Assembly: GCA_964617845.1 (NCBI GenBank)
Contig: CAZUAR010000003.1
Coordinates: 69,908 to 133,907 of the forward strand
From: an uncultured Kofleriaceae bacterium
GTDB lineage: Bacteria; Myxococcota_A; Polyangia; Haliangiales; Haliangiaceae
Direction: 5' to 3'
Length of the DNA: 64,000 nt
This document shows positions 1,248 to 37,638 of this stretch, piece after piece. The notes below the pieces were generated by a model. That model ran no database searches, had not been told where the DNA came from, and saw only the letters and a list, made by a program, of their open reading frames with translations. Each line of letters opens with the position of its first letter. Position 1 is the first letter of the stretch. Made by a program: the position numbers and the translations under genes.

Positions 1248-4200
1248 CTAGTTCGTTTCGTCCTCGTCGTCGAGGAGCTCGTCGTCGTCCTCGTCGTCCT
1301 CGTCCTCGTCCTCGTCGTCGTCCTCGTCGTCGTCCTCGTCGTCGTCGTCGTCGTCGTCATCTTCGGCGATCGTCGCGACACCGGCACGCTTGCGCTCTTC
1401 TTCGAACGCTTCGGTCCCTTGACGTGCGGATAGCCATTCCTTGGCCGTCGAGTGTTGCCAGCCCCACTTCGCGGCGAGCACCACGAACATGCCCCCGATG
1501 AGGCGATCGTCGTCGGGCGGCTCTTGCAGCAGCTCCCACTTCACGTGGTGGTTCGAGTGCCGCAGCATTCGATCGAACAGCGCGAACGCGTCGGCGTCGA
1601 GTGGCCCGGTGCGCAGCGCGTGGACCGCCGCTTCGAGGAGCTTGCCATCGGGATCGAGGAGCTCGCCCTGTGGACGCGCGCGATCGATCGCGCCGTGCGC
1701 GGCGTTCACGATCGCCGCGCGCGCGCTGGCGAGATCGCGCCTGCCCGCTTCGGCGACGAGCGACGCGCGGCCGACGAGGTGCGGCTCGGAGAGCAAGGCC
1801 ACGAGAGCGTCGTCGGAGAGGCCACCGACGATCGTCGGGTCGAAGATGGGCGCGGCGGCGATCGGAGCACCGAGCTTGTCGAGGAGCGCGTGCGCGCCGG
1901 CGCGGATGTCGGGCTCCTCGAAGCGCACGAGCCACGCGAGGTCTGCGGCGTCGACGAGCTCGGGGAAGTGATCGGCGATGCGCAGCGCGAAGCGGATGTT
2001 GCGGACGGTGTACTCGTGGTTGTAGTCGACCTCCGAGAGCGCGCGATGGAGCCCGGCGCGAAGCTCGTCGTGCTTCGCGTCGCCGGCCATGGTGAGGGCG
2101 ACGGCGCGGGCGAAGGTCGGCGTGCTGTCGGAGCGGCTCGTGATCCCCTCGGCGAGGCAGGTCCGCATGTGCTCGCGGCGAGCGGGCGTGACGGTGCGCG
2201 CGAGCTTGCCGTAGGCGAAGTGGAGCTCGGCGTTGAGCTCGCCGTCGTTGCGGAGAGCGATCGTCTTCAGCATCGCGTCGATCACCGCGTCGGGAACGTC
2301 GCGCGGCTCGGGTGCGGCGGCGAGACAAGCAGCGAGCGCGTGGGCGGCGGGCGCGCGCGGATCATCGGCGTGCGAGGTGGGTTGCGCGATCACGCGGGCC
2401 AGCGCGGGGACCGCGGACGGGTCGCCGATCGCCGCGAGCGCGTTCGAGGTCTCGGTCAACAAGTCTTCCTTGGTGATCGAGTCGGACATCGACTTGATCG
2501 GCGACGTCTCGAGCACGCGGATCAGCGCGGGGACGCTCGCGCGGTCGCGAAGTGCGCCGAGGATCCGGATCACCCGCGTGCGGCGATGCTCGTAGCGCTC
2601 GGAGGTCGCGAGGATCGGACGCAGCGTGTCGGCGACACGCGCATCGAGGAGCCCGGCGTGCGCGCGTGCGACCAGGACATCGGTCGCGTGGCGGGCGACG
2701 TATCGGCTGCGGTCGTCGTCGCCGTCATCGTCGACATCACCATCGTCGACATCGCCATCGTCGACATCGCCATCGTCGACATCGCCATCGTGGACATCGC
2801 CATCGTCGACATCGCCATCGTCGACATCGCCATCGTCGACATCGCCATCGTCGACATCGCCATCGTCGACATCGTCGACATCGCCATCATCGACATCGCC
2901 ATCGTCATCGGCGCCCTCGTCGTCGGCGGCGACGTCCTCGTCCTCCTCCTCGTCGTCGTCGGCGGCGTCGTGGTCCTGGGCGGCGTCGGCGGGCTCGTCA
3001 TTCGTCGCCCGCAAGGCGGGCATGCGCGTCGTACGCCTCGCATCGTCCTCGTCGCGATCGTCGTCGTCCGCATCGTCCGCATCGTCCGCATCGTCCGCAT
3101 CGTCCGCGTCGGCCGCGTCGTCCGCGTCGTCGAACAGCGCGTCGACGGCCTCCTCGATGTCCTCGACGCCGATCTCCTCGTCCGCGTCATCGTCATCGTC
3201 ATCGTCGTCGTCGTCGTCGTCGGCACCACTCGTGACGATGTCGATCGCCAGCTCGCGCAGCATCTGCGCGACCTCCTCGGGCGACCAGTCACTCTGCGCG
3301 GCGATCCATGCATCGATCGCGTCGTCGCCGCCCTGCGCGTGGACCGCGAGCAGCGGGTTGCCGCCGAGGACGAACGGCTCGCTGGTGTCGCCCATCAGGC
3401 CGCCGTACTTCTGCTGCATCGTGGCGCCGCCGAACCGCGCGTGGATCACCGGCACGATCTCGTCGAGCTTGCTCAGGATCCAGAGGAGGTGGCCGACCTG
3501 CTCCTCGGGCGAGGAGGGCACCGCGAAGCGATCGACCCAGAGGTGCGCCGCGTGGCGCACGCGATCGATCGTCACCGCAGCGTTGCGGTGGCGCCCGCCG
3601 TAGGGCGTCAGCCACAGCGTGTGGAAGCACGCGAGGACCGTGCTCTCGCCGCCGAGCGCGGGGCCCGCGAGCTTGAACGCGATGCCCACGTCCTCCCAGT
3701 CGAGCTCCTCGAGGATCTGCGGATAGCCGTCGACGGGGAAGCGCACGTTGGCGACCATCGGCGGCGGTCCGTGCGACCAGGTGGCGTCGTCGTCGTCCTC
3801 GTCGTCGCCGTAGTCGTCGTCCTCGTCGTCCTCGTCGTCATCGTCGGACGGCGCGGGAAAGATCTGCACGGGCTGCGTGCCTTCGCTCCCGTCGTCGGTA
3901 TAGCCGTCGGCGTCGACCGTCTGCTCCACGATGAAGGCTTCGCCGTCGATGCCGGTGCCCGCGTCGTCCTCGTCGAAGGGATTGCCGTCGTCGCCTCCGA
4001 TGATCGGCAGGCTCGTGCCGGTCTGGAAGAACCACGCCTCCTCGACGCCGTTGGTCGCGGACGCTTCGACGAGGCGGCGTTGCAGCTCGACGTCGGAGCC
4101 GGCCTCGGGCGGCACCCACGGCATGCCCAGGAGGTGGAAGGGCTGATCGTCGTCGCGGGAGGACAGCTCGTCGAGGAAGGCGTCGACGTCGGGCATGATC

Positions 4201-17324: not shown

Positions 17325-17344
17325 CTGAATGAACCGTCATTCAG
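17325..17344. promoter_or_regulatory. perfect inverted repeat CTGAATGA-N4-TCATTCAG in the divergent promoter region (candidate operator)
   Basis: Seen directly. It sits 37-56 bp upstream of the acyl-CoA dehydrogenase ATG and overlaps the first alternative ATG of the divergent TolB-like gene. Confidence 0.4.
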
Positions 17345-17394
17345 TTTATGGCCACACTTACGCGTCGCGTCAACCACCGTCGGGAGATTCCGTC

Positions 17395-18333
17395 ATGGGA
17401 TGCTGGGACGTGGTCCGGCCTCGCGAACCGCGATGTCTCCCTGCGAGTGGATGCGCGTTCATCGCGCTCCTGCTCGGCTGCGGTCGCATCGGGTTCGATA
17501 CCGGCTCGTCGATCGATGCGCCGGGCGACGGTGGGCCCGACACCTCGATCGACGCACCGCTGGCGTTCGGTCCGTGGCTGACGCCGACCGAGGTCGCCGT
17601 GATGAACACCACCTCGATGGACTTCGGTCCGACGTTCTCGCCCGACGCGAGCGAGGTGTACGTGTCTCAGCGGTTCACCGGTGACGCGGAGATCTTCCGC
17701 TTCACGCGTGCGGATGCCGCGAGCGCGTTCGGAAACAAGACCGCGATCGCCGCCATCAACGTCTCCGGCGGCTCGGAGGAAGGCGAGCCATCGCTGTCCG
17801 ACGATGGGCTCGAGCTGTGGTTCAACAGGTACGCGCCCGATCGGATCTTCGTGAGCACGCGCTCGAGTGTCACCGTGACCGATTGGACCGCGCCGGTGCT
17901 CGTCGACACGATCCATCCGAACCTCGCCGGATTTCATTCGCCTGACTTCTCTGCCGATCGACACATGGTGCTGACGAAGGACGGGATGATCTGGGAAGCG
18001 ACGCGTCCGTCGTCGACGTCGCCGTGGGGCGCACCGGTCTCGCTCGGCATCACCGGCGACGTTCCGTGCATGCGCCGCGACGGGCTCGAGCTGCTCTACG
18101 AAGGCGCGGTCACGATCGCCGGCATGCCGTCCGTCGCGATCATGCGCCGCACGCGCGCGTCGATCGGCGTCGCGTTCGGTCCCGAGGAGCGGCTCTCGTT
18201 CGGCGCGCTCGATGTCGCCGGCGTCGGAGATCCCGAGCTGAGTCACGATGGAAGCACGCTGATCTTTTCGGCGGAGGAGGTGCTCGGAAACGTGACTTAC
18301 GATATCTACATCTCGGAACGAGTCATCGAGTGA
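17395..18333 (+). CDS. TolB-like/PD40 beta-propeller repeat lipoprotein
   Basis: Lipobox IALLLGC after a charged N-region. WD40-like beta-propeller (PD40) repeat character (SPDASEVYVS, SDDGLELWFN, SHDGSTLIFS). Start chosen at ATG 17395, which has a GGGAGA RBS; an alternative ATG is at 17329. Confidence 0.65.
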   Translation: MGCWDVVRPREPRCLPASGCAFIALLLGCGRIGFDTGSSIDAPGDGGPDTSIDAPLAFGPWLTPTEVAVMNTTSMDFGPTFSPDASEVYVSQRFTGDAEIFRFTRADAASAFGNKTAIAAINVSGGSEEGEPSLSDDGLELWFNRYAPDRIFVSTRSSVTVTDWTAPVLVDTIHPNLAGFHSPDFSADRHMVLTKDGMIWEATRPSSTSPWGAPVSLGITGDVPCMRRDGLELLYEGAVTIAGMPSVAIMRRTRASIGVAFGPEERLSFGALDVAGVGDPELSHDGSTLIFSAEEVLGNVTYDIYISERVIE

Positions 18334-19034
18334 GCCCCGCGCGCAGAAAGCCCCGGCGACGAACGTCGAACAACCACGGCGGCGCGCGTCCCGGTGCAGG
18401 TCGCCCGCCCAAGGGCGAGTTCGCCGGGCATCCCCACAAGGGCCGCGAAGCATTTCGCGCGAAGCACCCCGTGCACGTCGTGATGCGCACGCTCCCGGTG
18501 GCCGGAAACCTCCGGCGACCCGCGATCCACGAGGCGGTGCGCAGCGCGTTGACGACGATCGGCAAGCACGAGGACTGCCGCGTCGTTCACCTCTCGATCC
18601 AGCGCGATCACATCCATCTCCTCGTCGAGGCCGATGACCGCGAGGCGTTGTCGCGCGGCATGCGAGCGTTCCAGATCTCGCTCGCGAAGCGGATCAATCG
18701 CGCGGTCAGCTCGTCGACGAGGAAGCGTCGTCGCGGCCAGATCTTCACCGACCGCTACGAGTCGTTCGTCCTCGAGACACCGCGTGCGGTTCGCGACGCG
18801 CTCGTCTACGTGCTCAACGCGTGGCGCAAGTTCGAGAAAGCGGCGCCCAAGGCGCTCGATCCGTACTCGTCCGCGCTCGCGTTCGCAGGCTGGAAGGAGC
18901 CGATCAGCGACGCCGACTCGTCGGACTTCGCGCCGCTCGTGCTCTGGCCTCCGCGTACGGCGCTGTTGACCAGCGTCGGCAAGATCGCCCGCAACGAAGC
19001 GCCGCCGCCGCCCGCGAAGAAGCGTCCGTGGTGA
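18330..19034 (+). CDS. IS200-like Y1 (HuH) transposase homolog (RAYT-like)
   Basis: HuH motif HLSIQRDHIHLLVEA. N-terminal RPGAGRPPKG. GTG start overlapping the upstream stop. Paralog of the 29647..30384 gene. Confidence 0.6.
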   Translation: MSPARRKPRRRTSNNHGGARPGAGRPPKGEFAGHPHKGREAFRAKHPVHVVMRTLPVAGNLRRPAIHEAVRSALTTIGKHEDCRVVHLSIQRDHIHLLVEADDREALSRGMRAFQISLAKRINRAVSSSTRKRRRGQIFTDRYESFVLETPRAVRDALVYVLNAWRKFEKAAPKALDPYSSALAFAGWKEPISDADSSDFAPLVLWPPRTALLTSVGKIARNEAPPPPAKKRPW

Positions 19035-19631
19035 TCACGTAGCGAAGCGCAGCTCGATCGCGTCGTCGCGCATCACCAACGTCCCCTCGTGCAAGCGAAC
19101 CATCGCGCGCGCGTAGACCAGCGCCAGCGATCGCCTGCCGAGCCCGCCGACGGGCGTGCGCGCGAGCGTGCAGGTGATCGCGCCTCCGCCGGCGTCGAGG
19201 GTGATCGCGAGTCGCCCGCCGCGCGCGCGCGTCACGAGATGCTCGAGGAGCAGGTCCACAGTGCGGACGAGCTTGTCCGCGTGCGCGCGCATCTCGACAC
19301 CGGGCGCGAGCTGCGTATCGACCGCGCATCCATGCTCGGCCGCGAGAGGCTGCGCGCGATCGATCGCCGCGGCGAGCAGGCGCGATAGCGAGAGGACCGC
19401 CGCGGGTGCCTCGATGTCGCCTCGAAGCAGGCGCGACAGATCGCGGAGATCCTGCACGAGACGCGTCTCGTGCTGCACGCAGCGTTCGATGGCGTCGAGA
19501 GCACGCGCACGCATTTCGGGATCATCGCTGCGCTCTCGAAGCACCGAGAGCCACATCTGCTGCGCGCCGAGCGGTGTCGCCAGATCGTGGAGAACGAGGT
19601 CGACGCACGCCGCGAGGTCGAGCTCGTCCAT
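19035..19631 (-). CDS. short sensor-less histidine kinase (HisKA dimerisation/phospho-acceptor region plus HATPase_c)
   Basis: The HDLATPL H-box is near the N-terminus (MDELDLAACVDLVLHDLATPL). The C-terminal ATP-binding-like region ends at 19035. The start lies 2 nt after the stop of the upstream response regulator. Confidence 0.7.
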   Translation of the reverse strand: MDELDLAACVDLVLHDLATPLGAQQMWLSVLRERSDDPEMRARALDAIERCVQHETRLVQDLRDLSRLLRGDIEAPAAVLSLSRLLAAAIDRAQPLAAEHGCAVDTQLAPGVEMRAHADKLVRTVDLLLEHLVTRARGGRLAITLDAGGGAITCTLARTPVGGLGRRSLALVYARAMVRLHEGTLVMRDDAIELRFAT

Positions 19632-19633
19632 GG

Positions 19634-20263
19634 TCACAGGCCCAGCGAGTGCGCGAGGACGAGCAACTGCGGGAACGAGCCGACGCCGAGCTTGCGCATC
19701 AGGTTCTGCCGGTGCGTCTCGACAGTGCGCCGCGAGATCGACAATGCGGTCGCGATCGTCTCGTTGGACTCGCCGAGGACGAGGCGCTGGAACACCTGCT
19801 TCTCGCGGTCGGTGAGTCGCTCGACAGGGTTGACGTCGTCGCTCTCCGCCAGATGGCGGATCTGAGTCTCGTCGATGGTCGGCGGCAGATACGACTTCGA
19901 CTCGATGACGGTGCGGATCGCGTCGAGGATCGCCGAGGAGGACTGCGACTTCAGCGCGTACCCATCGGCGCCGGCGCGGATCATGGCCGCGACTCGCACG
20001 GGCGCGTCGTGCGCCGACAGGCCGAGGACCTTGCACGCCGGCGCGATGTCCTTGAGCCGCTTCGTCAGCGACACGCCGCCCGTCGTGGGCAGTACGACAT
20101 CCACGATCGCCAGGTCGATCGGTCGCGATCGCGCGATCTCGAGCGCCTCGCCCGCCGTGCCAACCGCCGCGACCACCTCGCACTGCTGCGTCTCGAGGAG
20201 CTGAGCGATTCCTGCGCGAAACAACGGATGATCATCTACGACAATGGTTCGTGTTCCGATCAT
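19634..20263 (-). CDS. NarL/FixJ-family response regulator (REC plus LuxR HTH)
   Basis: The MIGTRTIVVDDHPLFRAGI receiver domain carries the phospho-acceptor Asp context. The C-terminal LTDREKQVFQRLVLGESNETIATALSISRRTVETHRQNLMRKL is a LuxR-type HTH. A GGAGG RBS precedes the second ATG. Confidence 0.85.
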   Translation of the reverse strand: MIGTRTIVVDDHPLFRAGIAQLLETQQCEVVAAVGTAGEALEIARSRPIDLAIVDVVLPTTGGVSLTKRLKDIAPACKVLGLSAHDAPVRVAAMIRAGADGYALKSQSSSAILDAIRTVIESKSYLPPTIDETQIRHLAESDDVNPVERLTDREKQVFQRLVLGESNETIATALSISRRTVETHRQNLMRKLGVGSFPQLLVLAHSLGL

Positions 20264-20553
20264 CTCTCCTACCTCCATGAATCACGTGTAGCGTTCTTCG
20301 TAGAGGTGAACAGGGGAGACATCGCGAGCATCGCTCGAAGCTCCGCGAGGAGCATCTCACGATCGATGTCATTGGAAGGATTGCGGGTCTGGGTGGTGAG
20401 CATCGCCCCGTTTCGCGACCGCTCGGTGCGGCAAGCTGCCTCACTCCGTCGAACAGCCGGCATGGGAGCGGCTGCGATTTCATTGGCCGAACCGGATCAC
20501 TCGAGCTCGCCCTTCGTGGTCCGTGTCTTGTAGCCCTCCGGCGCGGAGGGCCA

Positions 20554-22096: not shown

Positions 22097-25000
22097 AGGA
22101 TGCGCGACCTCGAGCTCTCGCGGCGGATCGACGACGGCATCGTCACGCCCGACGATCTCGCGCCGCTGGCGATGACCCCGCTCGGTGGTCGCGGCGTGTT
22201 CCTCGGCCGGCTCGCGGCGCTCGCGGCGCACGAGGATGCGGCGCTGCGCACGGCGGCGCTCGCGTGCCTGGCGGGTGCGCGCGGAATGCGAGCTGTGCGC
22301 GCCATCGTCGCGCGGCTCGATGACGCCGACGAGAGGGTGCGAGCAGCGGCGGTCGACGCGCTGCGCGTGACCGCCCGCGAGGCGCCGCATCGCTACGCGC
22401 ACGCGCTGTTTCACCCGCGCGTCGACGTGCGGCGGATGGCGCTGCACCAGGTGCCGTCGGGGATCGCGGAGGTCGCGTCGTACCTGCGCGCGGATCCCGA
22501 GTGCGCGGATCTGATCAAGGACGTGCCGTGGCCCGATCCGAGGCTGCCGCTCGTGTTCGACCTGCACGCGACGGCAATGCTCGGCTCGGCGGAGATGATC
22601 CGCATCGTCGCGTGGTCGCCTCCGCACGAGATGAGGTCGTTCCTCGAGCGCGAGCACGGACGCATGGAGTCGGAGGTCGACGCGTACCTCGAGCAGTGCG
22701 CGCGCGATCCGGTGCTCGTGCCCGCGCCGCGCGCGGATGCGATCGATCAGCTGTGGCGCGCGATCGCGGAGGCAGGCGCGTACGAGCGCGAGCTCGAGAT
22801 GGTGATCGTCACCGCGACCCTGGCGAAGAAGAAGAACCCGATCGGGCGGCGCATGGTGGCGTCGCTGCTCTCGCACCTCGCGCGCGATCCGAGGCCCGAG
22901 CTGTGGGGCGCGCTCGCGACGCTGGAGCCGCGCTCGCTCGACTGGGCGTGCTTCGATCGCACGCAGGCGGACGCGGTCGCCGCCGCGCTGATTCGCTTCA
23001 AGTGGCCCGTGCGCCCGCTCGCCGCGCAAGCGCTGCGGCTGTTGAACCTCGCGTGGGTGAAACGCGACCTCGCGCTCGCCGCGGCGATCGCCGGCCTGTT
23101 GCCCGCGAAGCGCCTGCACCGGCTCGCGGAGGCCTTCGGCGAGCCCGCGCTCCTCGACGCGCTCGTCGCGGACGATCGCGGATGGGTCCAGATCTGTCAC
23201 CTGCCGCAGGAGAAGCCGCCGCACGATCAACGCTGGCTCGCACAGATCGAGCGCACGCGGCCCGCGCGAACCGCGGAGCTGGCGGGCATCGCGCTCGGCA
23301 TCTTCAGCGGGAAGCGGCTCGAGGCGTTCATCGATCAACTTCAACGCCGCACGCGCCCGCTCGCGTTCATCGCGCTCGTGCGGCGCACCGCGCTCGAGGC
23401 CGACGATCCGCGCATCCTGACGGCGGCGGCGATGATGTCGACGCGGATCGATCGCGCCGGGTGGACCGAGGTGCTCGCGGCGCTGCTCGAGCCGGGCACG
23501 CCGCAGCGCGAGCTCCTCGTCGCGATCATCGTGATCCGCGCGCTCGCCGACAACATGGTCAAGACCGTCGCGACGGCGCTGTCGGATGCCGCGCTCCTGC
23601 GCGTCGTCGAGATCGTGGACACCGTCGACGGCGAGGACGCGCTGCCGCGCAGTCGCGAGGTCGCGCTCGCCGAGGCCGCGTCGCTGCGCAAGGACCCCGC
23701 GCTGCTCCTGTGGTCCGCGAAGATCCTCGCGCCCGCGACGTCGGCACCCACCGTCGTGGTGCCGCCGGTGCGCGCGAAGCGAACGCTGACCGAGGACGAG
23801 CAGAGGGAGATCATCGCCGCGCCGCTCGCCAAGCTCGAGGAAGCGCTCGCACCCGCGCTCGGCTCGCCGACGGCGGGGCTCGTCGACGCGCTGTCGCGGC
23901 GCGCGGCGCATCCGAGCGTCGCTGCGTGCGCGGCGCTGCTCGGGTGCGTCGATCCGATGCCGGAGGTCGCCGTCCAGCTCGACCGCTTCGCCGAGCGCAC
24001 CGCGAAGTTCGAGTCCGCGCTCGACAACGCGGCCGCGGCCGCGTGGGGCACCGGCCGCCCTGCCCTGTCGAACCTGCCGCTATTCGAGGACTCGCAGCTC
24101 CCGGCGCTCGTGCACGCGAGACTCTGGCGCTGGGAAGCGCACACCGAGCAGCTCGCGAAGTGGATCGCGCGCTTCGGCAGTGCGCACGGCGCGCTGACGG
24201 CGATCGCCGGGCTCGAGGGCTGGCTCGCCGTCTCGACGATGTGGCGCGGCATCGCGGAGGTGCTCGTGTTCGCGCGCTATCGCGATCGCACGCGCTTCTT
24301 CGCCGAGGGCACCGAAGCGCTCGCGAAGTACGCGGCGGAGCGAGTCGACCAGCACTTCGGGCTGCAGGCGGCACGCGTGTGCGTCGCGCTCGTCGAGGGT
24401 GGCGCCGTGCCGATCACGTCGATCCGCTCGATCATCCTCGACCGCACGCCCGACGCCGACGCGGAAACGCGCGATCAGCTCGCGCGCTTGATCCGCCTCG
24501 ACGGCATGCCGACGCCGCCGCGCACGATCGAGATCGGCATCACGTCGGCATCGCTGATCGAGAAGATTCGCTCCACGAAGGATCTCGACGCGCTCGAGCG
24601 GTACTGCGCCGACGCGCGGTTCGCGGTCGTGCAGGAAGCGGTGCTGATGATGCTCACGATGGGCGAGCACGGACAGCTTCGCCTCGCGCACCTGCTCGCG
24701 CGCCTCGGGGAGCTGCCCGCGCCGGTGCCGCTGCTCGCGAGCATCGCGCTGTGGGACTCCCCCGCGGCGCTCGACATCGCGCGCACGCTCGCCGCAAACG
24801 CGAACCTTCCCGCGGAGTGGCAGTTCCATCTGTGCCTCGGTCTCGGCGACATCCAGCGCGCGATCGCGGCGATTCACGTGCCCGGTACGAGCTGGTTCCG
24901 CCGCACCGACTGGGACGCGCTGACCAAGCAGATCACGCTCCGCGAAGCGGCGCTCGCGCTCGTCGATGCGCCGCATCACCACGCCTACGCGCGCTCCGTC

Positions 25001-27118
25001 GAGGTGCTCCTCGAAGATCCGCACACGAACAACCCGGACCTGCGCTCCGCGCTCCATCGCTTCCTCGAGGTCAGCTCCGCGCGACCGACGCACCTGCGCC
25101 GCACCGTCGCGCGCCGCCTCGCGGTCGACATCGACGATCTGCTCGGCATCCCGATCCTCGTCGACGAGCTGATCGACATCGGCCCGGGCGGCTCGAGCTG
25201 GATGGACGCCCTGTCGCGCAGAGCCGGCGAGCAGATCGCGCGCGGCGTCGTCGAGGCCGCGCTCGTCGGCGGTCACGGCGTGTGCGCCGAGAAGCGGCTG
25301 TGGGAGATCCTCGCGAAGCTGGATCACGCGAAGCTGCTCGAGCAAGAGGTCGCCGCCGAGCTCTACGCGCTGATGCTCGACGAGGCGATGACATCGCAGC
25401 TCCGCAACCTGGCCGCGCAGCACGCGATCGGTTCGACGCTCGCCCACTCGCGCTTGCTCGCGGTCGCCGAGGTCTTCGCCTGGGGCGTGCGGCGCGGCAT
25501 CGAGCTGACCGGGCGCCTCATGCGGTTCCACCTCACGAGCAAGGAGAAGGACCTCGGCCACACGTACCTCGACGGCAACCAGGTGTTCGTGTCCGCGCTG
25601 CCGATGCTGCGCGGCGAACCGCACGGCGTCGACGTCGTCGAGGGCCTCGTGCTCCACGAGCTCGGGCACCACGCGTACCACCGCGGCGAGCAGGCGCAGG
25701 CGCTGTGGAAGCAAGCGCACGCCGAGGGCATCGGCCACCTGCTGAACCTGATCGCCGACGAGCACCTCGAGCGAAACCTGCGCGCGCTCGATGCGTCGTA
25801 CGGCGATCGCCTGAAGCGCCTCGACGCGTACGCGTTCCAGCACGCGCCCCAGGAGCTGAGGCTCCACGCGCTGCTCGAGACGCTGCGCGGCTCCGCGGCG
25901 AGCGCGCTCACCGGCACCGAGCTCGGCGTCGCCTTCGACGAGCTGTGCGTCCGCCTCCGCCGCGGCGCGATCCTCACGCAGCTCGAGAAATCGGGCCACC
26001 CGCTCGCTCGCTTCGCGCGCGCGCTCCGCATGGGGCTCGGCAATCGCCATGGCGATCCGCTCGTCGGCGCCGCGCTCGATCTGTGCGGCCGCGATCTGCG
26101 CAAGCACGACATGCAGGGCCTCTACAACCTGACGAAGCAGGTCGCCGCGATGTTCGGAGGCGCGGTCTCCGTCGCCAAGGTCTTCGGTGGGCCCGAGGGC
26201 CTCGGCTTCGGAGAGCGCGACGAGGACGTGTTCGCCGGTGGCATCGACGACGACGTCCTGCAGCGCGAGGTCGAGCGCATCCTCGATCCGAAGCGCGGCA
26301 AGGGCCCGCGCAAGCCCGGCGAGATCGATCGCCTGCAGATCAACGTCAACCCCGACGAAGACTTCGAGCGCATCACGAACGTGCGCAAGATCAAGGGCTC
26401 GCCCGAGGACCATCGCCGGCTCGTCGCCGAGGTCAACCGCCACTCCATTCGCCTGCGCACGCACCTCGACGAGCTCGGCCTGCGCTGGCTCCCCGTGAAG
26501 GCGCGCACGAAGGGCCACGCCCTCGACCGCGGTCGCCTTCGCTCGCTGATCACGCACGGCGATCCGCGGATCCTGCAAGCGCGCACGCCGACGCGCCGCA
26601 CCGACCTCTTCCTCGGCACCATCATCGACTGCTCGGGCTCGATGTCCGCCGGCAACAACCTCGAGCGCGCGCGCAAGTTCGCCGTCCTGATCGCGGAAGC
26701 CGTTCGTCCGCTTCCCGGCGTCGAAGCCCGGTTCTTCGGCTTCACCGACTCGACGATCTACGACGCCGGCGACTCCGCGAATTGCAACGTGACCGCGCTC
26801 CGCTCCGAGGGTGGCAACAACGACGCCGCCGCGCTCTTCCACGCCGCGAACGTCGCGCTCTCCTCGCGCAAGCGCGCGCGCGTCCTCGTGATGATCAGCG
26901 ACGGCCTCCCGACCGAGTGCTCCGTCGCTGCGCTGCGCGGACTCGTCACCACGCTGACCAAGCGCAAGGGCATCGTCTGCGCGCAGGTCGCGGTCCGCGC
27001 CCTCGAAGAAGAGTGCTTCCCGAACTACGTCGTCCTCGACGACGCGGCCATCGAGACCGCGGTCGCCAAGTTCGGCCGCATGATCGGCGACCTCACCCGC
27101 AAGGCGCTCTCCGCCTGA
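22097..27118 (+). CDS. giant HEAT-repeat protein with an HExxH-like motif (HELGHHAYH) and a C-terminal von Willebrand factor A (vWA) domain
   Basis: N-terminal PBS-lyase/HEAT-like repeats (RVRAAAVDALRVTAREAP, VDVRRMALHQ). LVLHELGHHAYHRGE lies near residue 1180. The C-terminal vWA has a MIDAS motif DCSGSMS followed by GFTDS...MISDGLPTE. The start at ATG 22097 is uncertain; the ORF is open back to 21950. Confidence 0.7.
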   Translation, partial: RMRDLELSRRIDDGIVTPDDLAPLAMTPLGGRGVFLGRLAALAAHEDAALRTAALACLAGARGMRAVRAIVARLDDADERVRAAAVDALRVTAREAPHRYAHALFHPRVDVRRMALHQVPSGIAEVASYLRADPECADLIKDVPWPDPRLPLVFDLHATAMLGSAEMIRIVAWSPPHEMRSFLEREHGRMESEVDAYLEQCARDPVLVPAPRADAIDQLWRAIAEAGAYERELEMVIVTATLAKKKNPIGRRMVASLLSHLARDPRPELWGALATLEPRSLDWACFDRTQADAVAAALIRFKWPVRPLAAQALRLLNLAWVKRDLALAAAIAGLLPAKRLHRLAEAFGEPALLDALVADDRGWVQICHLPQEKPPHDQRWLAQIERTRPARTAELAGIALGIFSGKRLEAFIDQLQRRTRPLAFIALVRRTALEADDPRILTAAAMMSTRIDRAGWTEVLAALLEPGTPQRELLVAIIVIRALADNMVKTVATALSDAALLRVVEIVDTVDGEDALPRSREVALAEAASLRKDPALLLWSAKILAPATSAPTVVVPPVRAKRTLTEDEQREIIAAPLAKLEEALAPALGSPTAGLVDALSRRAAHPSVAACAALLGCVDPMPEVAVQLDRFAERTAKFESALDNAAAAAWGTGRPALSNLPLFEDSQLPALVHARLWRWEAHTEQLAKWIARFGSAHGALTAIAGLEGWLAVSTMWRGIAEVLVFARYRDRTRFFAEGTEALAKYAAERVDQHFGLQAARVCVALVEGGAVPITSIRSIILDRTPDADAETRDQLARLIRLDGMPTPPRTIEIGITSASLIEKIRSTKDLDALERYCADARFAVVQEAVLMMLTMGEHGQLRLAHLLARLGELPAPVPLLASIALWDSPAALDIARTLAANANLPAEWQFHLCLGLGDIQRAIAAIHVPGTSWFRRTDWDALTKQITLREAALALVDAPHHHAYARSVEVLLEDPHTNNPDLRSALHRFLEVSSARPTHLRRTVARRLAVDIDDLLGIPILVDELIDIGPGGSSWMDALSRRAGEQIARGVVEAALVGGHGVCAEKRLWEILAKLDHAKLLEQEVAAELYALMLDEAMTSQLRNLAAQHAIGSTLAHSRLLAVAEVFAWGVRRGIELTGRLMRFHLTSKEKDLGHTYLDGNQVFVSALPMLRGEPHGVDVVEGLVLHELGHHAYHRGEQAQALWKQAHAEGIGHLLNLIADEHLERNLRALDASYGDRLKRLDAYAFQHAPQELRLHALLETLRGSAASALTGTELGVAFDELCVRLRRGAILTQLEKSGHPLARFARALRMGLGNRHGDPLVGAALDLCGRDLRKHDMQGLYNLTKQVAAMFGGAVSVAKVFGGPEGLGFGERDEDVFAGGIDDDVLQREVERILDPKRGKGPRKPGEIDRLQINVNPDEDFERITNVRKIKGSPEDHRRLVAEVNRHSIRLRTHLDELGLRWLPVKARTKGHALDRGRLRSLITHGDPRILQARTPTRRTDLFLGTIIDCSGSMSAGNNLERARKFAVLIAEAVRPLPGVEARFFGFTDSTIYDAGDSANCNVTALRSEGGNNDAAALFHAANVALSSRKRARVLVMISDGLPTECSVAALRGLVTTLTKRKGIVCAQVAVRALEEECFPNYVVLDDAAIETAVAKFGRMIGDLTRKALSA

Positions 27119-28282: not shown

Positions 28283-28796
28283 TCGCAGCGGCCATCGCGA
28301 GGCGGTGATCGGCGTTCCACGGCGGGCCGAGCTTCTTGCCGGTCTCGCGCACCACCTTGTCGACGCCCGGCGCGGACAGCACCGTCTTTGCGTCGAACCA
28401 CACAATCCTCCACCCGAGCTCGCGCGCGGCCTTCGCCAGCGCCTGGCGATACATGATCCAGTCCGCGTTGTTCTGCGCCCAGTAGTCCGTGATGCGCTCC
28501 TCGATCGTCGCGGGCAGCTCGGGACACACGCGGAGCGCGATCGTCGAAATCTTCACGTCGCCCGCGAGTTCCTTCAACGCCGCGAGCGAACATTTCTCCG
28601 CCGACACGCGCACACGCTCGACGAGCGCCACGCCCTCGTCGAGCGGCAACAGCTGCGCCTCGGTGTGATGCGGGATCGCGGGCAAGCCGTCCTCCACCAA
28701 CGTGACGCGACGGCGATCCACGAGCGCGCCGTCCGCGACCGTCACCAGCACGGCCCAACCGCCGTGATCCGACACGCTGACGACTGCATTCACCAT
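28164..28796 (-). CDS. hypothetical protein
   Basis: 210-aa ORF with a natural-looking composition for the first about 170 aa. Its Arg-rich tail overlaps the convergent lipoprotein gene by about 118 bp, so the true 3' end may differ. Confidence 0.4.
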   Translation of the reverse strand: MVNAVVSVSDHGGWAVLVTVADGALVDRRRVTLVEDGLPAIPHHTEAQLLPLDEGVALVERVRVSAEKCSLAALKELAGDVKISTIALRVCPELPATIEERITDYWAQNNADWIMYRQALAKAARELGWRIVWFDAKTVLSAPGVDKVVRETGKKLGPPWNADHRLAMAAAITAVAAPAVGRRVHRRSRRTAASGRTPARSAPRSRARRS

Positions 28797-28805
28797 GCAG
28801 CGATT

Positions 28806-29108
28806 CTAGCGGACGAGGTCGTGATCTATCTCGTAGGCGCCTCGCGAGAACACATCGTCCATCCTCGGCCCGAACCCGCTCGTGATCGTCGCGTACGACT
28901 TCGCTGGATGCCCGCACAGCGATCGCACGAGCTTCACGTGCGTCTGCCCGCCACGCACCGCGATCGTCAGCGCGCGCGAGCGCCAGACGAACCCACTCGG
29001 CGCCGGATCGCACCTGCCCCGTTCGCCGACCAGCTCGTCGATAGCAGCACCAAGCGCACGCGATCGAGCGCGACCTCGATTGCCACGCGTGGCCACCAGG
29101 GCCGTCAC
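28806..29108 (-). CDS. small hypothetical protein
   Basis: 100-aa ORF ending 10 bp upstream of the next same-strand gene. No recognisable family. Confidence 0.2.
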   Translation of the reverse strand: MTALVATRGNRGRARSRALGAAIDELVGERGRCDPAPSGFVWRSRALTIAVRGGQTHVKLVRSLCGHPAKSYATITSGFGPRMDDVFSRGAYEIDHDLVR

Positions 29109-29169
29109 TCGATCGTTCCCGACCGCCAGCCGCTCCGCGCGAGATGGCCGATACTGTCAAGGGCACGCT

Positions 29170-29634
29170 ATGACGACGACGTTCGCGATTCACCTCCTGC
29201 GCCCTCGGTCTGGTTGGGTCGACGTCGATCTCACCCTCGGCGCGCATCGCGTCCATTTCGCCGCGTCGCACGTCCTGAACGATCCGGTCGAGGAGCTGGC
29301 GGGGTTCGGCTTGTTGCTCATGCAGCCACCAGACGTCGCTCGGCCATCCGTCAGGTTCTGGCTCGAACCGGCCGGGTACGAGCTGCTGGCCTCCGAGGAA
29401 GATCCCACCGAGCTTCGTCTTCGGTATGCGAAGAACGCATATCCGCGGCTCGACGATCCGATCGACGTGACGCGCATGCGTCTACCTCGAAGGACATGCG
29501 GCGCGGAGATCGCGCGCTGCCTCAGAAGCGCGAGCGCGGAGTTCGTCCAAGCGCGCAGCGAGAATCGCCACGCGTGGAACCAACCCTTCCCCGAAGAGCT
29601 CCTCTCGTTGCTGGAGTCGACGCTCCGCAATTGA
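29170..29634 (+). CDS. hypothetical protein
   Basis: 154 aa from ATG 29170 (MTTTFAIHLLRPRSGWVDVDL...). Mixed hydrophobic/charged composition typical of a globular protein. No family recognised. Confidence 0.4.
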   Translation: MTTTFAIHLLRPRSGWVDVDLTLGAHRVHFAASHVLNDPVEELAGFGLLLMQPPDVARPSVRFWLEPAGYELLASEEDPTELRLRYAKNAYPRLDDPIDVTRMRLPRRTCGAEIARCLRSASAEFVQARSENRHAWNQPFPEELLSLLESTLRN

Positions 29635-29646
29635 CGCCTTCGTTCA

Positions 29647-30384
29647 TCATCGACGCTTTGATTTCCGGCGGGGTAGTGGCCTGACCGCCGGAGCTTCTCC
29701 GAGCCGGAGCAAGCCGTGACGGCGCCATCCGACGCGCAGCAACCACACCGTCGCCGGCGCGCACGGGTTCAGCATCGACACGAGCTCGCGCTTCCACCAC
29801 GAATCGATCACGAGTGGCTGTGCCCACCCGTCGAACCACGCGGCGCTCGAGCACGGATCGAACCACGTCGGATCATCGAACGAGCTCGGCGCGTGATGAA
29901 GCGCGTTGTTCAGCACGTAGCGCAACGCGTTCCGCACCTCGGTCGGCGTCCGCAACGGACGGCAGTGATAACGATCACCAAACACGGATCCACGCCGACC
30001 TACGATTCGATTGATCGCTCTCGCGACGCGCACCTCGAACGCGGCGATCCCCGAGCTCCGCGCCAGGTCGTGCGCTGATTCGGTGATGAGGTGCAGGTGG
30101 TTCGACTCGACGTTGAAGTGAACGATGCGGAAGTCCGCGCGATGCGAGCGCGCGATCGCGTCGCGAATCGCGATCACGAATCGACGCTGTCGCAACGAGG
30201 GCAGCCCTTCGAGCAGCCGCAACGTGACGTGCTGCGGAAGAACCGATGCGGGGATCGATTCGCGCGCTTCATGGCCGACCCGCGACTTGCCACGCGGTCG
30301 GCCGGCGCCAGGACGCCAGCCACCGTGCCCAGACGGAACGCGTGCGTCATCGAATGTCAGTTGTGGTGATCGTCGACGACGCAC
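29647..30384 (-). CDS. IS200-like Y1 (HuH) transposase homolog (RAYT-like), second copy
   Basis: HuH motif HFNVESNHLHLITES. N-terminal GWRPGAGRPRGKS matches the RPGAGRP of the first copy. GTG start proposed at 30384. Flanked by about 30-bp direct repeats. Confidence 0.6.
   Translation of the reverse strand: MRRRRSPQLTFDDARVPSGHGGWRPGAGRPRGKSRVGHEARESIPASVLPQHVTLRLLEGLPSLRQRRFVIAIRDAIARSHRADFRIVHFNVESNHLHLITESAHDLARSSGIAAFEVRVARAINRIVGRRGSVFGDRYHCRPLRTPTEVRNALRYVLNNALHHAPSSFDDPTWFDPCSSAAWFDGWAQPLVIDSWWKRELVSMLNPCAPATVWLLRVGWRRHGLLRLGEAPAVRPLPRRKSKRR
29650..29683. repeat. flanking repeat copy 1 (ttgatttccggcggggtagtggcctgacc) with an internal hairpin TCCGGCGG-N13-CCGCCGGA
   Basis: Seen directly. 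A near-identical copy is at 30408..30438. Confidence 0.55.
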
Positions 30385-30407
30385 ACAACCGATCTCGCAC
30401 ACGAGTC

Positions 30408-30438
30408 TGATCTTGATTTCCGGCGGGGAAGTGGTCAG
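30408..30438. repeat. flanking repeat copy 2 (ttgatttccggcggggaagtggtcaggcc)
   Basis: Seen directly. About 27/30 identity to the copy at 29650. It lies immediately upstream of the transposase-like gene start. Confidence 0.55.
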
Positions 30439-30709
30439 GCCAAGTTGCTGATCACGCCGCGACGGCGATTTCGAAACTCTTCCATTCGCGCCAACGTCTT
30501 TGTTCCTCAAGCTGAGCTGCGAGGCCCCGGGGACGATCCCGCAATGATCGCTGCGGCTCATGCGGAGGCGCTACGCGCTCGCCGTTCTGAATCTTCCGCG
30601 CCATTCACAGACGGCGAATAGTGTCGACCAACACTTCGCTGCGACCATCGCGTTGGCAAAACCGAGGTCGCGGCCGTGAAGAGTCCCGTGACGTCGTCAG
30701 GTCGATGTG

Positions 30710-30760
30710 ATCAACACCAAAACAAATGCCCGCGAGGACCTCGTCGATCCCCGCGGGCTT
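30710..30760 (-). terminator. Rho-independent terminator of the rtcB-mvp operon
   Basis: On the minus strand, GCCCGCGGGGAtcgacgagGTCCTCGCGGGC (11-bp arms with one non-canonical G·T pair, 9-nt loop) is followed by AUUUGUUUUGGUGUU, 5 nt after the MVP stop codon. Confidence 0.65.
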
Positions 30761-30763
30761 CTT

Positions 30764-33244
30764 CTAGTCACCGTTGCCGTTCGTCAGCGTGAGCTTGTCG
30801 ACCAGCGGCTTGAGCGGCGTGTTGTGGAACAGGCGCGACAGCGTGTCTCCGAGCGACTCGCCCTCGACCACGCGCTGCACACCCCACGCCTCCGCCACCT
30901 TGACCAGCGTCTCGTGACGCGACAGCTGCATGAGCGCCTCGCTGAAGTTGCCCGACGCAGCCGTGAACCGCTGCACGGCGGTCTCGGCCTCGGCGCGCAG
31001 CAGCTCGATGCGCTTCTCCTGCTCGCGCGCGAAGAAGTGCAGCTCCTGCTCGCGCTCGCGCTTCACGCGCTCGATGCGCTGCCCCAGCTTGAACGACTCG
31101 ATCGACTGCTCCGCCTCCACCAGCTTCTTGCGCTCGTCGGTCTCGCGCAGCGTGTTGGCGATGCGAGCGAGAGCCGTTGCCAGCTCGCTCGTTGCCAGCT
31201 CGCGCGCGAGGTCGTCGGTGCGCATCTTGGTGAGGGCCTTGACCTCCGCCGTTTCGCGCATGATCGCCTCGCGCTGCTTGGTGACCGAGAGCTCGCGGCT
31301 CAGGTTGGACACGTCGATGTTCGACTTCACGACGTCATGCTGTGCCGCCTCCAGCAGCGCGCGGATCTTGTCGTCCTTCAGGGCTACCTGGAGGACGTCG
31401 ACATCCTGGATGCGCATGCCGTTGGCGGGGAACTCCATGCCGGCGATCAGGGAACGGATCGTGTCCGTCGAGGTCGAGTAGAACTGCTCGACGGTCAGCT
31501 TGCGGACGGCGCCCTTCAGCGTCGAGCGAACGTGGTCGCACAGGTACTTCACGTAGTTCTCGACGGCGAACCACTTGAGCGGGTCGCCGGCGAAGCTCAC
31601 GCGGTAGGACATGCGCAGCTGGACATAGACGTGGTCGAAGGTCTCGACCTCGACGATGTCCGTGACCTGGTTGTTCTCGACGCGAAGGAACGGAGTCTCG
31701 AGGAGCTTGTCCGTCGTCTTCGGCTTGCCCGTGGAGAGCGTCAGCGCCTCGATGGTCTCGTCGTAGTCGAGCAGCACCGTGGTGGGACCCACCTCGACGC
31801 GGCGGCGGCCCGTCTTCGCCGTCACGAGGACTGCGTAGCCGGTCCACACCGCGAGCTGCGGGGCACCCTGGTACTTGTTGTCGAGCAGCGCCATGCGCGG
31901 CTGCGAGTACGTCGACGCGCGAGAGAACTCGTCGGCGACGAGCGCCTGGTCACCCGAGACGCGAGACGACTCCATCACCATGCCGGCCGCGGCCTTCGCC
32001 ACACGCTTGCCGCCGCGCTCCACGTCGCCCTCGGAGAGGACGCCCTGGCGCGTGGTGGGAACGTTGTGGATCAGCTGACGCAGCGACTGGTTGTAGGCGA
32101 GCGCCTCGGCGTTGCCGGGGTACCAGAGCGCGCACTCGCGATCGGTGAGCACGCGGCGGACGATCACTTCGTGACGCGGGTCCGGCAGGAGCATGGCGGG
32201 GCCCCGCACCGTCCGGATCGCACCCGTGAGGCGGTCCATCACGTAGCGGGCTTCGCCCGCGGGGATGGCCGTCGCGAAGTGCTTCGCCTTGCCGTCGTAC
32301 TTGATCGCCGAGTGCTCCTCGCGCGGGAAGTAGATCGCCGTGTCCTTGCCGGTGATGAAGAGCTCATCGCCGGCGCGGTGCGCGACGCCGTTCTCCGTGT
32401 AGTCCGCGATCACCTTGATGTGAAGGCCCTGGATCTCGTTGAGCTCGACCGCACGGAACTTCTTGCTCGGACGACCTCCGTCGTCGCGAGCTTCGACGAA
32501 CCGCTCGGTGGGCAGCGGAAACACGACCTGCGGACCGACCTCGTAGCGCTTCTTGCCGTTCTCGTCGACGAGGATCGCGTACTCGAGACGCTCGAGGGTC
32601 AGCGCTTCACGCGCGTACCACTCGCCGTCGCGAACGACCTCGATTCCCGTCGGCGGGATGTAGAACGAGACTTCGGTGCCGCGGATGATGAGCTGCTTGC
32701 CGACCGTGAGGTCCTGCGGCGCCGACGACACGGCCGTTGCCGGAGCAACAACCTCGCCGTCGACAGCCGCGGGCTTCACGACCGCCTTGCTCCAGTTCTT
32801 GCGCGCCTCGTCTTCGTTGTAGACGCGGACGAGCAGGTACTGGTTCGAGCGCAGGTGATGACCCTCGACGACCTCGGCTGCCTGACCCGGCCACAGTGCA
32901 AACGTGGCGGGGCCCGGCACGATGATCGTGCGACCGATCTCCTGTTCGGCGCTCGGCTGCGCGCTTCCCTCGTCGGGATGCTTGTTCCCCTTCGCCGGGT
33001 TGCGAAGGATGATGTAGTGACCTTCCGCTGCGATCGGCGAGATACGCATCGCCTCCTCGAGTGAGGACGCCGTGCGGAACGTGTTCTTCTCCGCGTCGTA
33101 GATCACCGGCCGCTCCTGCGCGGTCGGGTTGATCACGGTCGGACCCGAGTACGTCTTCACGACGCCCTTGGTCACGTCCTGCATGTACGCGTAGCTGCCG
33201 GGCGGCAGTACGAGGTCCCGCTTCTGTACTTCTGACATTGCCAT
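30764..33244 (-). CDS. mvp: major vault protein (MVP) homolog
   Basis: 826 aa. The N-terminal MVP repeat pattern (MAMSEVQKRDLVLPPGSYAYMQDVTKGVVKTYSGPTVINPTAQERPVIYDAEKNTFRTA... with repeated beta-rich about 55-aa vault repeats) is followed by a shoulder and a long coiled-coil cap-helix region (ELSVTKQREAIMRETAEVKALTKMRTDDLARELA...). Architecture and length match eukaryotic MVP, whose bacterial homologs are rare. Confidence 0.88.
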   Translation of the reverse strand: MAMSEVQKRDLVLPPGSYAYMQDVTKGVVKTYSGPTVINPTAQERPVIYDAEKNTFRTASSLEEAMRISPIAAEGHYIILRNPAKGNKHPDEGSAQPSAEQEIGRTIIVPGPATFALWPGQAAEVVEGHHLRSNQYLLVRVYNEDEARKNWSKAVVKPAAVDGEVVAPATAVSSAPQDLTVGKQLIIRGTEVSFYIPPTGIEVVRDGEWYAREALTLERLEYAILVDENGKKRYEVGPQVVFPLPTERFVEARDDGGRPSKKFRAVELNEIQGLHIKVIADYTENGVAHRAGDELFITGKDTAIYFPREEHSAIKYDGKAKHFATAIPAGEARYVMDRLTGAIRTVRGPAMLLPDPRHEVIVRRVLTDRECALWYPGNAEALAYNQSLRQLIHNVPTTRQGVLSEGDVERGGKRVAKAAAGMVMESSRVSGDQALVADEFSRASTYSQPRMALLDNKYQGAPQLAVWTGYAVLVTAKTGRRRVEVGPTTVLLDYDETIEALTLSTGKPKTTDKLLETPFLRVENNQVTDIVEVETFDHVYVQLRMSYRVSFAGDPLKWFAVENYVKYLCDHVRSTLKGAVRKLTVEQFYSTSTDTIRSLIAGMEFPANGMRIQDVDVLQVALKDDKIRALLEAAQHDVVKSNIDVSNLSRELSVTKQREAIMRETAEVKALTKMRTDDLARELATSELATALARIANTLRETDERKKLVEAEQSIESFKLGQRIERVKREREQELHFFAREQEKRIELLRAEAETAVQRFTAASGNFSEALMQLSRHETLVKVAEAWGVQRVVEGESLGDTLSRLFHNTPLKPLVDKLTLTNGNGD

Positions 33245-33253
33245 TCTCCTCTC

Positions 33254-34474: not shown

Positions 34475-34486
34475 GGCGAGCCGGCC

Positions 34487-34506
34487 CTGTGCAGCTCGCG
34501 AACCAA
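34487..34506 (-). promoter_or_regulatory. candidate sigma-54 promoter (TGGttc-N5-cTGCA, GG-N10-GC spacing) for rtcB-mvp
   Basis: The reverse complement of 34489-34505 reads TTGGTTCGCGAGCTGCA, about 15 nt upstream of the rtcB ATG. Divergent rtcR encodes a sigma-54 enhancer-binding protein (known RtcR biology). The match to TGGCAC-N5-TTGCA is imperfect. Confidence 0.45.
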
Positions 34507-34581
34507 CCTGCTCGCTGTGTGATTGCCAACGGTTGCGATGTCTGTCGATATCGAAGGCGATAGCGTATTATCCTTTTGGAT

Positions 34582-36153
<1,572 letters not shown>

Positions 36154-37565: not shown

Positions 37566-37596
37566 GACATCCTCCTGAGTGCTTTCCTCCCTGGCG

Positions 37597-37611
37597 TTCC
37601 ACGGCGTGGAA
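37597..37611. promoter_or_regulatory. palindrome TTCCACG-g-CGTGGAA in the divergent intergenic region
   Basis: Seen directly between the TPR gene and the STAND NTPase gene, 28 nt upstream of the proposed ATG at 37639. Confidence 0.3.
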
Positions 37612-37638
37612 CAACCGTTCCGCGGTAGTTTCGAGCAC

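Follow-up and report, generated by a model that had tools for sequence, protein, structure and literature searches.

RAYT-type genes (for REP-associated tyrosine transposases, REP being repetitive extragenic palindrome) are the best-known domesticated bacterial transposases. We know of no RAYT-type function outside the gamma-proteobacterial REP systems. IS200 transposases carry the tyrosine motif Y---Q and class 2 (RAYT) proteins carry Y---NP (PMC6006769, Table 1). Subclass 2.1 of Quentin et al. 2018 (PMC6006769) corresponds roughly to Bertels group 1 and to the 'TIRYT' class of Di Nocera et al. 2013 (PMC3733652), TIR standing for terminal inverted repeat. RAYT genes with cognate REPs or TIRs on their flanks have been described (Nunvar 2010, PMC2817692; PMC3733652, PMC6006769), and in Marinomonas the REPs are confined to the vicinity of tnpA (Corneloup 2021, PMC8266576). 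Experimentally studied RAYT substrates consist of a palindrome plus GTAG (PMC8266576). The present analysis concerns rayT2, one of two genes for RAYT-like proteins in a 64-kb stretch of DNA (68.8% G+C; hereafter the window) from an uncultured Kofleriaceae bacterium. Positions 29652-30443 are read here, with a probability of roughly 60%, as a compact (~790 bp) REPtron/TIRtron-like module that consists of rayT2, an intact RAYT-class gene for a Y1 HUH single-strand-DNA endonuclease/transposase, and two cognate repeats of ~20-37 nt. The module departs only modestly from the known loci of REP/TIR-associated tyrosine transposases, and what is new is its direct-repeat, non-palindromic form. Its parts are as follows.

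29647..30384, minus strand: rayT2 (gene 2), Y1 HUH RAYT/TIRYT-like protein of 245 aa from the GTG at 30384 (alignment A2, AlphaFold2, Foldseek).
30407..30443: upstream repeat copy, plus strand reading GATCTTGATTTCCGGCGGGGAAGTGGTCAGGCCAA, 23-59 nt 5' of the rayT2 start.
29652..29688, same orientation: downstream repeat copy, overlapping the last ~12 rayT2 codons, with its outer edge 5 nt from the stop codon.

An earlier note on this DNA had described the gene as bracketed by near-identical direct repeats, and these two copies bear it out. The pattern TTGATTTCCGGCGGGG-N-AGTGG occurs exactly twice in the window, at 29658-29679 and 30413-30434, both on the plus strand; two matches were found in none of 100 shuffled sequences. 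The direct repeat extends to 29 nt at 86% identity and to ~37 nt by profile. The window version of the motif core reads CTTGATTTCCGGCGGGGAAGTGG.

Close rayT2 homologues were found through exact-protein look-up, and eight clade loci with readable flanks were used for the motif comparison, the related loci being mostly short contigs. In all eight, the motif is found next to a rayT2-clade gene or no more than about 1 kb away from it. Its consensus, taken from 18 aligned copies (alignment A3), is ~20 nt long and reads CTTGATTTC-(N)-GGCAGAGAA; the copies are arranged variously as direct repeats, as inverted repeats with arms of up to 117 bp, or as doublets. The relatives are listed here with the amino acid identity of their proteins to RayT2.

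L004, 83%: direct arrangement of both repeats, which match each other at 32/33 positions; gene context different from that of the window.
L013, 77%: direct pair bordering the gene, oriented the opposite way, with a further, inverted copy some 1 kb upstream.
L014/L015, 76%: 25-nt terminal inverted pair, 96% complementary, plus a doublet like a REPIN (REP doublet forming a hairpin) with 20-nt arms 20 nt apart.
L016, 83%: inverted motif pair upstream.
L002, 84%: single motif copy 640 bp downstream.
L055, 61%: five direct copies of TYGAATT(T)CGGCAGACA.
L061, 60%: terminal inverted repeats of 117 bp that are 96-97% complementary; their outer ends read CTTGAATTCGGCAGAGATC.

When a 22-nt profile of the motif was searched over 189,733 nt (the window and 15 loci), 13 hits were obtained at E<0.01, each no further than about 1 kb from a rayT2-type gene; none was found away from such genes in this sequence. 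Homology between the window and L004 starts and stops at the outer repeat edges, beyond which the flanks are unrelated. The upstream copies of these two loci are identical at 33 of 37 positions, as against 57% at 4-fold sites and a synonymous divergence (dS) of 1.06. Judged by this repeat identity, retained despite the high dS and between unrelated outer flanks, the motif is under selection and tied to the rayT2-clade gene.

The same comparisons bear on the idea that a single insertion left the direct repeats behind, as attL/attR-like scars or as a long target-site duplication without ongoing function in either case. The tight bracketing of a single gene by direct repeats at a synteny break would suit such an origin. 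A duplicated target, however, would vary by locus, and the repeats of the window and L004 are conserved far above neutral. The reading as a target-site duplication or att site was rejected because the same core motif flanks homologues in unrelated contexts and in other, including inverted, orientations, and it is hardly credible.

Some further observations were made on the flanks of the homologues. In L061, blocks of ~60 nt and ~48 nt are duplicated 3' of the gene (2450-4200), and a second partial inverted arm lies further upstream. Three independent assemblies of the P0015 locus (L053, L054 and L055) end 240-400 bp upstream of the rayT gene. The contig of another homologue (L062, 55% amino acid identity to RayT2) ends 144 bp downstream of its gene and is too short on that side for repeats to be judged. 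Contig ends near rayT genes may reflect multi-copy sequence that breaks assemblies.

The resemblance of the repeats to REPs is limited. One repeat was stated in the earlier note to fold as an 8-bp hairpin, and the locus was likened there to REP/BIME-associated RAYT loci (BIME: bacterial interspersed mosaic element) rather than to a complete insertion sequence.

29664..29693, plus strand: 8-bp hairpin of the downstream copy only, in which TCCGGCGG (29664-29671) pairs with CCGCCGGA (29686-29693); it includes adjacent coding sequence.

This hairpin exists, but is only modestly beyond shuffled sequence (z = -2.0; 8 of 200 shuffles fold as well). The upstream window copy folds into a different stem (z about -2), and no stem is formed by the repeat copies of L004 (z about 0). 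A conserved-hairpin (REP) reading of the repeats was rejected, since the stems differ between the window copies and are absent in L004. GTAG is present in one of the four closely related copies of the window and L004, and an Rfam scan of 28500-31000 gave sub-threshold chance matches only. The likeness to RAYT loci, as opposed to a complete IS200/IS605 element, stood, but the REP/BIME analogy did not: the hairpin is not conserved, the repeats are direct, GTAG is in one copy of four, and no copies are dispersed in 190 kb. By comparison with published descriptions, the closer analogue is the TIR-flanked TIRYT/TIRtron class (PMC3733652) or the locally confined REPtrons (PMC8266576).

The location of the upstream copy, shortly before the rayT2 start codon, is also what would be seen if the repeats were cis-regulatory sites, the upstream one a promoter or operator and the downstream one terminator- or operator-like, possibly autoregulatory and with no role in cleavage or mobility. 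In the window and L004 this copy can be read by eye as a weak -35/-10 pair (TTGACC-17 nt-CAAGAT), conserved bases of the 5' untranslated region follow it, and a non-palindromic motif without a conserved hairpin would agree with such a function. A scan of 29300-30900 for sigma-70-like promoters nevertheless found no site, and the copies 3' of the stop codon are as regular as the upstream ones. A promoter or operator would not be expected to occur in either orientation, as many as five times, and as 117-bp inverted arms that bound the whole gene, all of which is seen with this motif, and inter-locus homology stops exactly at the outer repeat edges. A regulatory role of this kind is considered unlikely.

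The protein evidence agrees with the claim of the earlier note that both genes encode Y1 transposase homologues with an HuH motif and an RPGAGRP N-terminus, about 40% alike and therefore not recent copies.

18330..19034, plus strand: rayT1 (gene 1), Y1 HUH RAYT-like protein of 234 aa, with HuH motif DHIH and tyrosine helix ALVYVLNAW.

RPGAGRP is present in both, and the HuH motif reads DHIHLLVE in RayT1 and NHLHLITE in RayT2. Over 188 aa they share 39% identity (E 2e-32), and they are old paralogues; a third copy was not found in the 64-kb window by tblastn. The open reading frame (ORF) of rayT2 extends up to 30561 (30561..29647, minus strand), and its homologues begin near 30384. A first homologue search gave more than 6,500 matches, many of them named RayT by the Joint Genome Institute (JGI). 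A profile search gave 1,932 clusters at 50% identity (E <= 1e-30), and the family is mostly from Myxococcota.

RayT1 scores 44.8 bits against Pfam Y1_Tnp (cut-off 23) and RayT2 falls just below that cut-off, at 19.5-20.1 bits. Y1_Tnp was matched by 41 of the 42 rayT2-family members of alignment A2 (E <= 0.01), and no other Pfam family was found among the 42, bar two spurious single hits; a match to a non-transposase family, which the earlier note had held to be contrary to its claim, was not found. NCBIfam transpos_IS200 (cut-off 55) was not matched by RayT2 and gave 29 bits with RayT1. REP_Tyr_transpos (cut-off 80) gave 33.9 and 36.5 bits for the two proteins. Searches of the PDB with the RayT2 sequence (phmmer) and with the family profile returned nothing significant, so that a comparison of folds was required. 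The AlphaFold2 model of RayT2 has a mean predicted local distance difference test score (pLDDT) of 85 and a predicted template modelling score (pTM) of 0.77; residues 1-45 are of low confidence (pLDDT about 43-52), and the N-terminus is disordered. In a Foldseek search of the PDB the top match was 4er8_A, a structure of the E. coli REP-associated transposase in complex with a REP hairpin (E 6.8e-5), followed by the ISDra2, IS200 and IS608 TnpA structures (including 2xm3, 2f4f and 2a6m).

Residues invariant in all 42 members (RayT2 numbering) are H96 and H98 of NHLH, E102, F135, R138 and Y139 of F-DRYH, and Y156, V157 and L158 of RYVLNN..HH. The catalytic tyrosine was the residue singled out for checking in the earlier note, and a candidate is present in both proteins: Y156 lies within a predicted helix (147-159) of the RayT2 model, and the Y of VYVLNAW in RayT1 aligns with the Y of kkYIeeqW in the IS200 TnpA 2f4f (phmmer). 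The C-terminal extension of RayT2 is conserved as (W/F)-x-DPCSSAAWFDGW ... WLL-VGWRRHG, with S179 and S180 invariant within DPCSSA. The conserved N-terminal segment reads QLTLD..GHGGWRPGAGRP and includes GGWRPGAGRP. The ratio of nonsynonymous to synonymous divergence (dN/dS) is 0.09-0.16 for rayT2 against five homologues and 0.14-0.16 for rayT1 against three orthologues; by these low ratios, both genes are functional and under purifying selection.

The series G-G-W-R-P-G-A-G-R-P was also noted for its position in the disordered, basic N-terminus, at 30281-30326 of the window (residues 20-34) in rayT2 and at 18381-18410 in rayT1. As a matter of speculation, this N-terminus with its GRP core resembles an AT-hook and might make contact with the A/T-rich GAAATCAA stretch within the motif.

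With the TIRYT/TIRtron class, rayT2 shares a protein of ~240 aa, longer than the core RAYTs, with an N-H-u-H motif (234 aa for RayT1 and 245 aa for RayT2, against ~238 for the class), and a C-terminal extension with a conserved SS. The class is reported to be prevalent among delta-proteobacteria. The repeats on the flanks of rayT2 are likewise not of the REP type and at most moderately repeated, and two relatives of the gene, L061 (117 bp) and L015 (25 nt), have true terminal inverted repeats with the same core motif. rayT2 differs in that the repeats of the window and L004 are direct, not inverted, and in that the motif is CTTGATTTC-N-GGCAGAGAA instead of the published GGGGWSAS consensus. The tyrosine motif is Y---N-N (YVLNN) in RayT2 and Y---A (YVLNA) in RayT1, that of the rayT2 clade being Y---N-[NA]..HH and not Y---NP. 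No C-terminal helix-turn-helix (Bac_DnaA_C, HTH_23, HTH_28) was found in the 42 members with Pfam, and the conserved N-terminal QLTLD..GGWRPGAGRP is a further difference.

Likeness to the RAYT/REPtron systems is seen in the best solved-structure match of the RayT2 model (E. coli TnpAREP, 4er8), in the flanking of the gene by its own short cognate repeats that co-vary with the protein lineage, in the housekeeping-like purifying selection, and in the nearness of the repeats to the gene, comparable to the REPs around tnpA of Marinomonas (PMC8266576). Unlike these systems, the rayT2 repeats have no GTAG-plus-palindrome architecture and are not inverted in the window, dispersal of the motif was not seen in 190 kb, the REP_Tyr_transpos score is 34-36 bits against the cut-off of 80, and instead of one copy per genome there are two or more divergent paralogues, no more than 12 kb apart.

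IS200/IS605 TnpA proteins (IS608, ISDra2) share with the rayT products the Y1 HUH fold, with HuH and a single tyrosine on a C-terminal helix. In IS608 the left- and right-end hairpins lie in direct orientation on one strand. The homology, direct end sequences comparable to these, and the finding of the unit in different contexts in relatives could together be taken to mean that rayT2 and its repeats are an active, autonomous IS200/IS605-type insertion sequence with the repeats as ends. The rayT proteins are, however, about 100 aa longer, with N- and C-terminal extensions, and NCBIfam transpos_IS200 was not reached by either. The tyrosine motif of RayT2 is Y---N and not the Y---Q of IS200 transposases (PMC6006769). 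No second copy of the unit exists in 64 kb, and the closest homologues found are just 75-79% identical in DNA. An active element is thus very unlikely. As Y---Q, tnpB, a conserved end or subterminal hairpin and multiple near-identical copies are all lacking in the 64-kb window, neither rayT1 nor rayT2 is an IS200/IS605-type insertion sequence.

The surroundings of rayT2 were compared with those of relatives. The module stands in a variable segment next to a conserved cassette of three genes (mvp-like, rtcB and rtcR), the near end of which has two features.

30718..30758, minus strand: intrinsic terminator of the mvp-like gene, with a 13-bp stem and a T-run (30758..30728); the mvp stop at 30764 immediately precedes it.
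30763..30764: left border of the mvp-rtcB-rtcR cassette; homology to L002 stops at 30763.

The gene had been placed immediately next to the mvp-rtcB terminator in the earlier note; the terminator is there, but 'immediately' is loose, as some 285 bp separate it from the nearer repeat and some 345 bp from the rayT2 start. The cassette (30763-36153) is 91-94% identical to that of L002, with sharp borders at both ends (the mvp stop and the rtcR end), and on either side its flanking genes vary among the window, L002 and L016. L002 and L056 belong to one 47-kb contig of a related metagenome-assembled genome (MAG), which is broadly collinear with the window; the shared order is ACAD, rayT1, methyltransferase, 1672-aa gene, acetyltransferase, ..., mvp-rtcB-rtcR. 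On the left side of mvp, rayT2 and a 154-aa ORF are found in the window and unrelated genes in the relative (L002). The rayT2 homologue of L002 lies 2.8 kb beyond rtcR in the opposite orientation and that of L016 lies 1.2 kb beyond rtcR; in DNA both are only 77-79% identical to rayT2. The module occupies different chromosomal positions in close relatives. Among the 13 genes in common with the relative, dS is highest for rayT2 (1.19, against 0.15-1.0 for syntenic genes) and its dN is low, which suggests that the module was relocated or replaced.

An insertion or rearrangement boundary at this point had also been proposed. The synteny break at 30763 and the copies of two relatives across the cassette speak for a boundary. 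A simple insertion of the module relative to L002 was rejected, since homology is not resumed left of the module and the break is the mvp stop, not a repeat edge.

Two other ORFs were recorded in this comparison. A 1046-aa ORF with AAA_16 and TPR (a STAND-like NTPase) occupies 37579-40719, where relatives have the rayT2-like gene beyond rtcR. The 1672-aa ORF (22100-27115), between a Methyltransf_21 gene and an acetyltransferase gene, has no Pfam domain and is syntenic in the related MAG with 84% amino acid identity.

Association with the gene, co-variation with the protein and conservation point to the motif as the probable DNA site of RayT2, which would be bound and perhaps cleaved and rejoined through Tyr156, as REPs are for RAYTs. 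Inverted motif pairs, such as the terminal inverted repeats and REPIN-like doublets of relatives, would be the hairpin-forming substrates. Since direct repeats are unable to form a hairpin together, the window copy is probably a largely immobile version retained by the host. Over evolutionary time the module would relocate or be exchanged, and it would mark a rearrangement-prone junction beside mvp-rtcB-rtcR.

Several points weigh against the reading of 29652-30443 as a REPtron/TIRtron-like module. The motif is without a conserved palindrome or GTAG, unlike the experimentally studied RAYT substrates (PMC8266576), and the two window copies are direct and cannot pair with each other. The excess of dS is suggestive but not decisive, as fast-evolving syntenic genes reach 0.75-1.0. 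The evidence comes from only eight related loci, mostly on short contigs. Finally, both scans of public DNA, in collections without the source genome or the L004 contig, gave chance hits in unrelated taxa only. A search of genome contigs with TTGATTTCCGGCGGNGNAGTGG returned eight single hits in taxa that include Clostridiales, Oscillospiraceae and Verrucomicrobiae. At least three of the eight fall inside conserved coding sequence and none is beside a convincing RayT homologue, the nearest to one being a weak protein match to RayT in L009 (27% identity, E 3.6e-4). A search of metagenome contigs with GNCCACTNNNNNGCCGGAAATCAA returned 36 single hits with no RayT nearby.

The 20-24-nt repeat patterns were seen to match conserved coding sequence of unrelated bacteria in L010-L012, L017, L029, L035, L041 and L042; the segments hit are GTPase-like (...FLISGGEVD...) and helicase-like (...SATFSPEIKKLA...). 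Such conserved coding segments explain the chance hits of the collection scans.

In a more far-reaching proposal, the rayT2 clade would be a distinct Y1 HUH class that recognizes a linear, non-hairpin end motif of ~20 nt and moves or reshuffles short cassettes locally. Recognition might then take place via the GRP-containing (AT-hook-like) N-terminus and the W-rich C-terminal domain, and the three module positions around mvp-rtcB-rtcR in three related genomes would be explained. To our knowledge, recognition of a linear, non-hairpin motif is not described for any Y1 transposase, and a class of this kind is quite improbable. Taken as a REPtron/TIRtron-like module, the locus extends the existing RAYT picture and does not change it. 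It belongs to a large, little-described family, mostly of Myxococcota, with its own conserved non-palindromic flanking motif, arranged as long terminal inverted repeats at one extreme and as short direct repeats at the other. It offers a defined pair of protein and DNA site for tests in vitro, and the module may serve as a marker of rearrangement-prone junctions in these large genomes.

The paralogue rayT1 belongs to a clade sister to that of rayT2 and shares 99% identity with a protein that bears the name 'MAG: transposase [Kofleriaceae bacterium]'. Its GTG start overlaps the TGA of the preceding gene (GTGA).

17329..18333, plus strand: PD40-repeat lipoprotein-like gene, the TGA of which overlaps the rayT1 GTG start.

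The PD40 match of this ORF (20.8 bits) is just under the Pfam cut-off of 20.9, and a faint PD40 match was obtained on its orthologues in L057-L060. The GTGA overlap suggests that rayT1 is translationally coupled to the lipoprotein gene, and it is also present at the rayT1 orthologue in L058-L060. The upstream neighbours (ACAD and the PD40 gene) and the overlap are kept in four other assemblies. No common repeats beyond GC-rich chance matches were found when the flanks of rayT1 and its orthologues were compared. The absence of repeats, the kept upstream neighbours and the translational coupling fit a fully domesticated copy.

The downstream neighbour of rayT1 differs among relatives. Directly 3' of the gene the window has a small histidine-kinase-like ORF and a GerE response regulator (19035-20540), and relatives have an unrelated gene of 390-445 aa (L056 10688-12025; L058 6856-8073). 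With this variable segment 3' of rayT1, both rayT genes adjoin variable segments. The PD40 gene 5' of rayT1 is mostly deleted in L056. A rayT1-clade homologue of 53% identity (L063) has two 74-nt direct repeats, 97% identical, at 2169-2242 and 2328-2401, both on the upstream side only.

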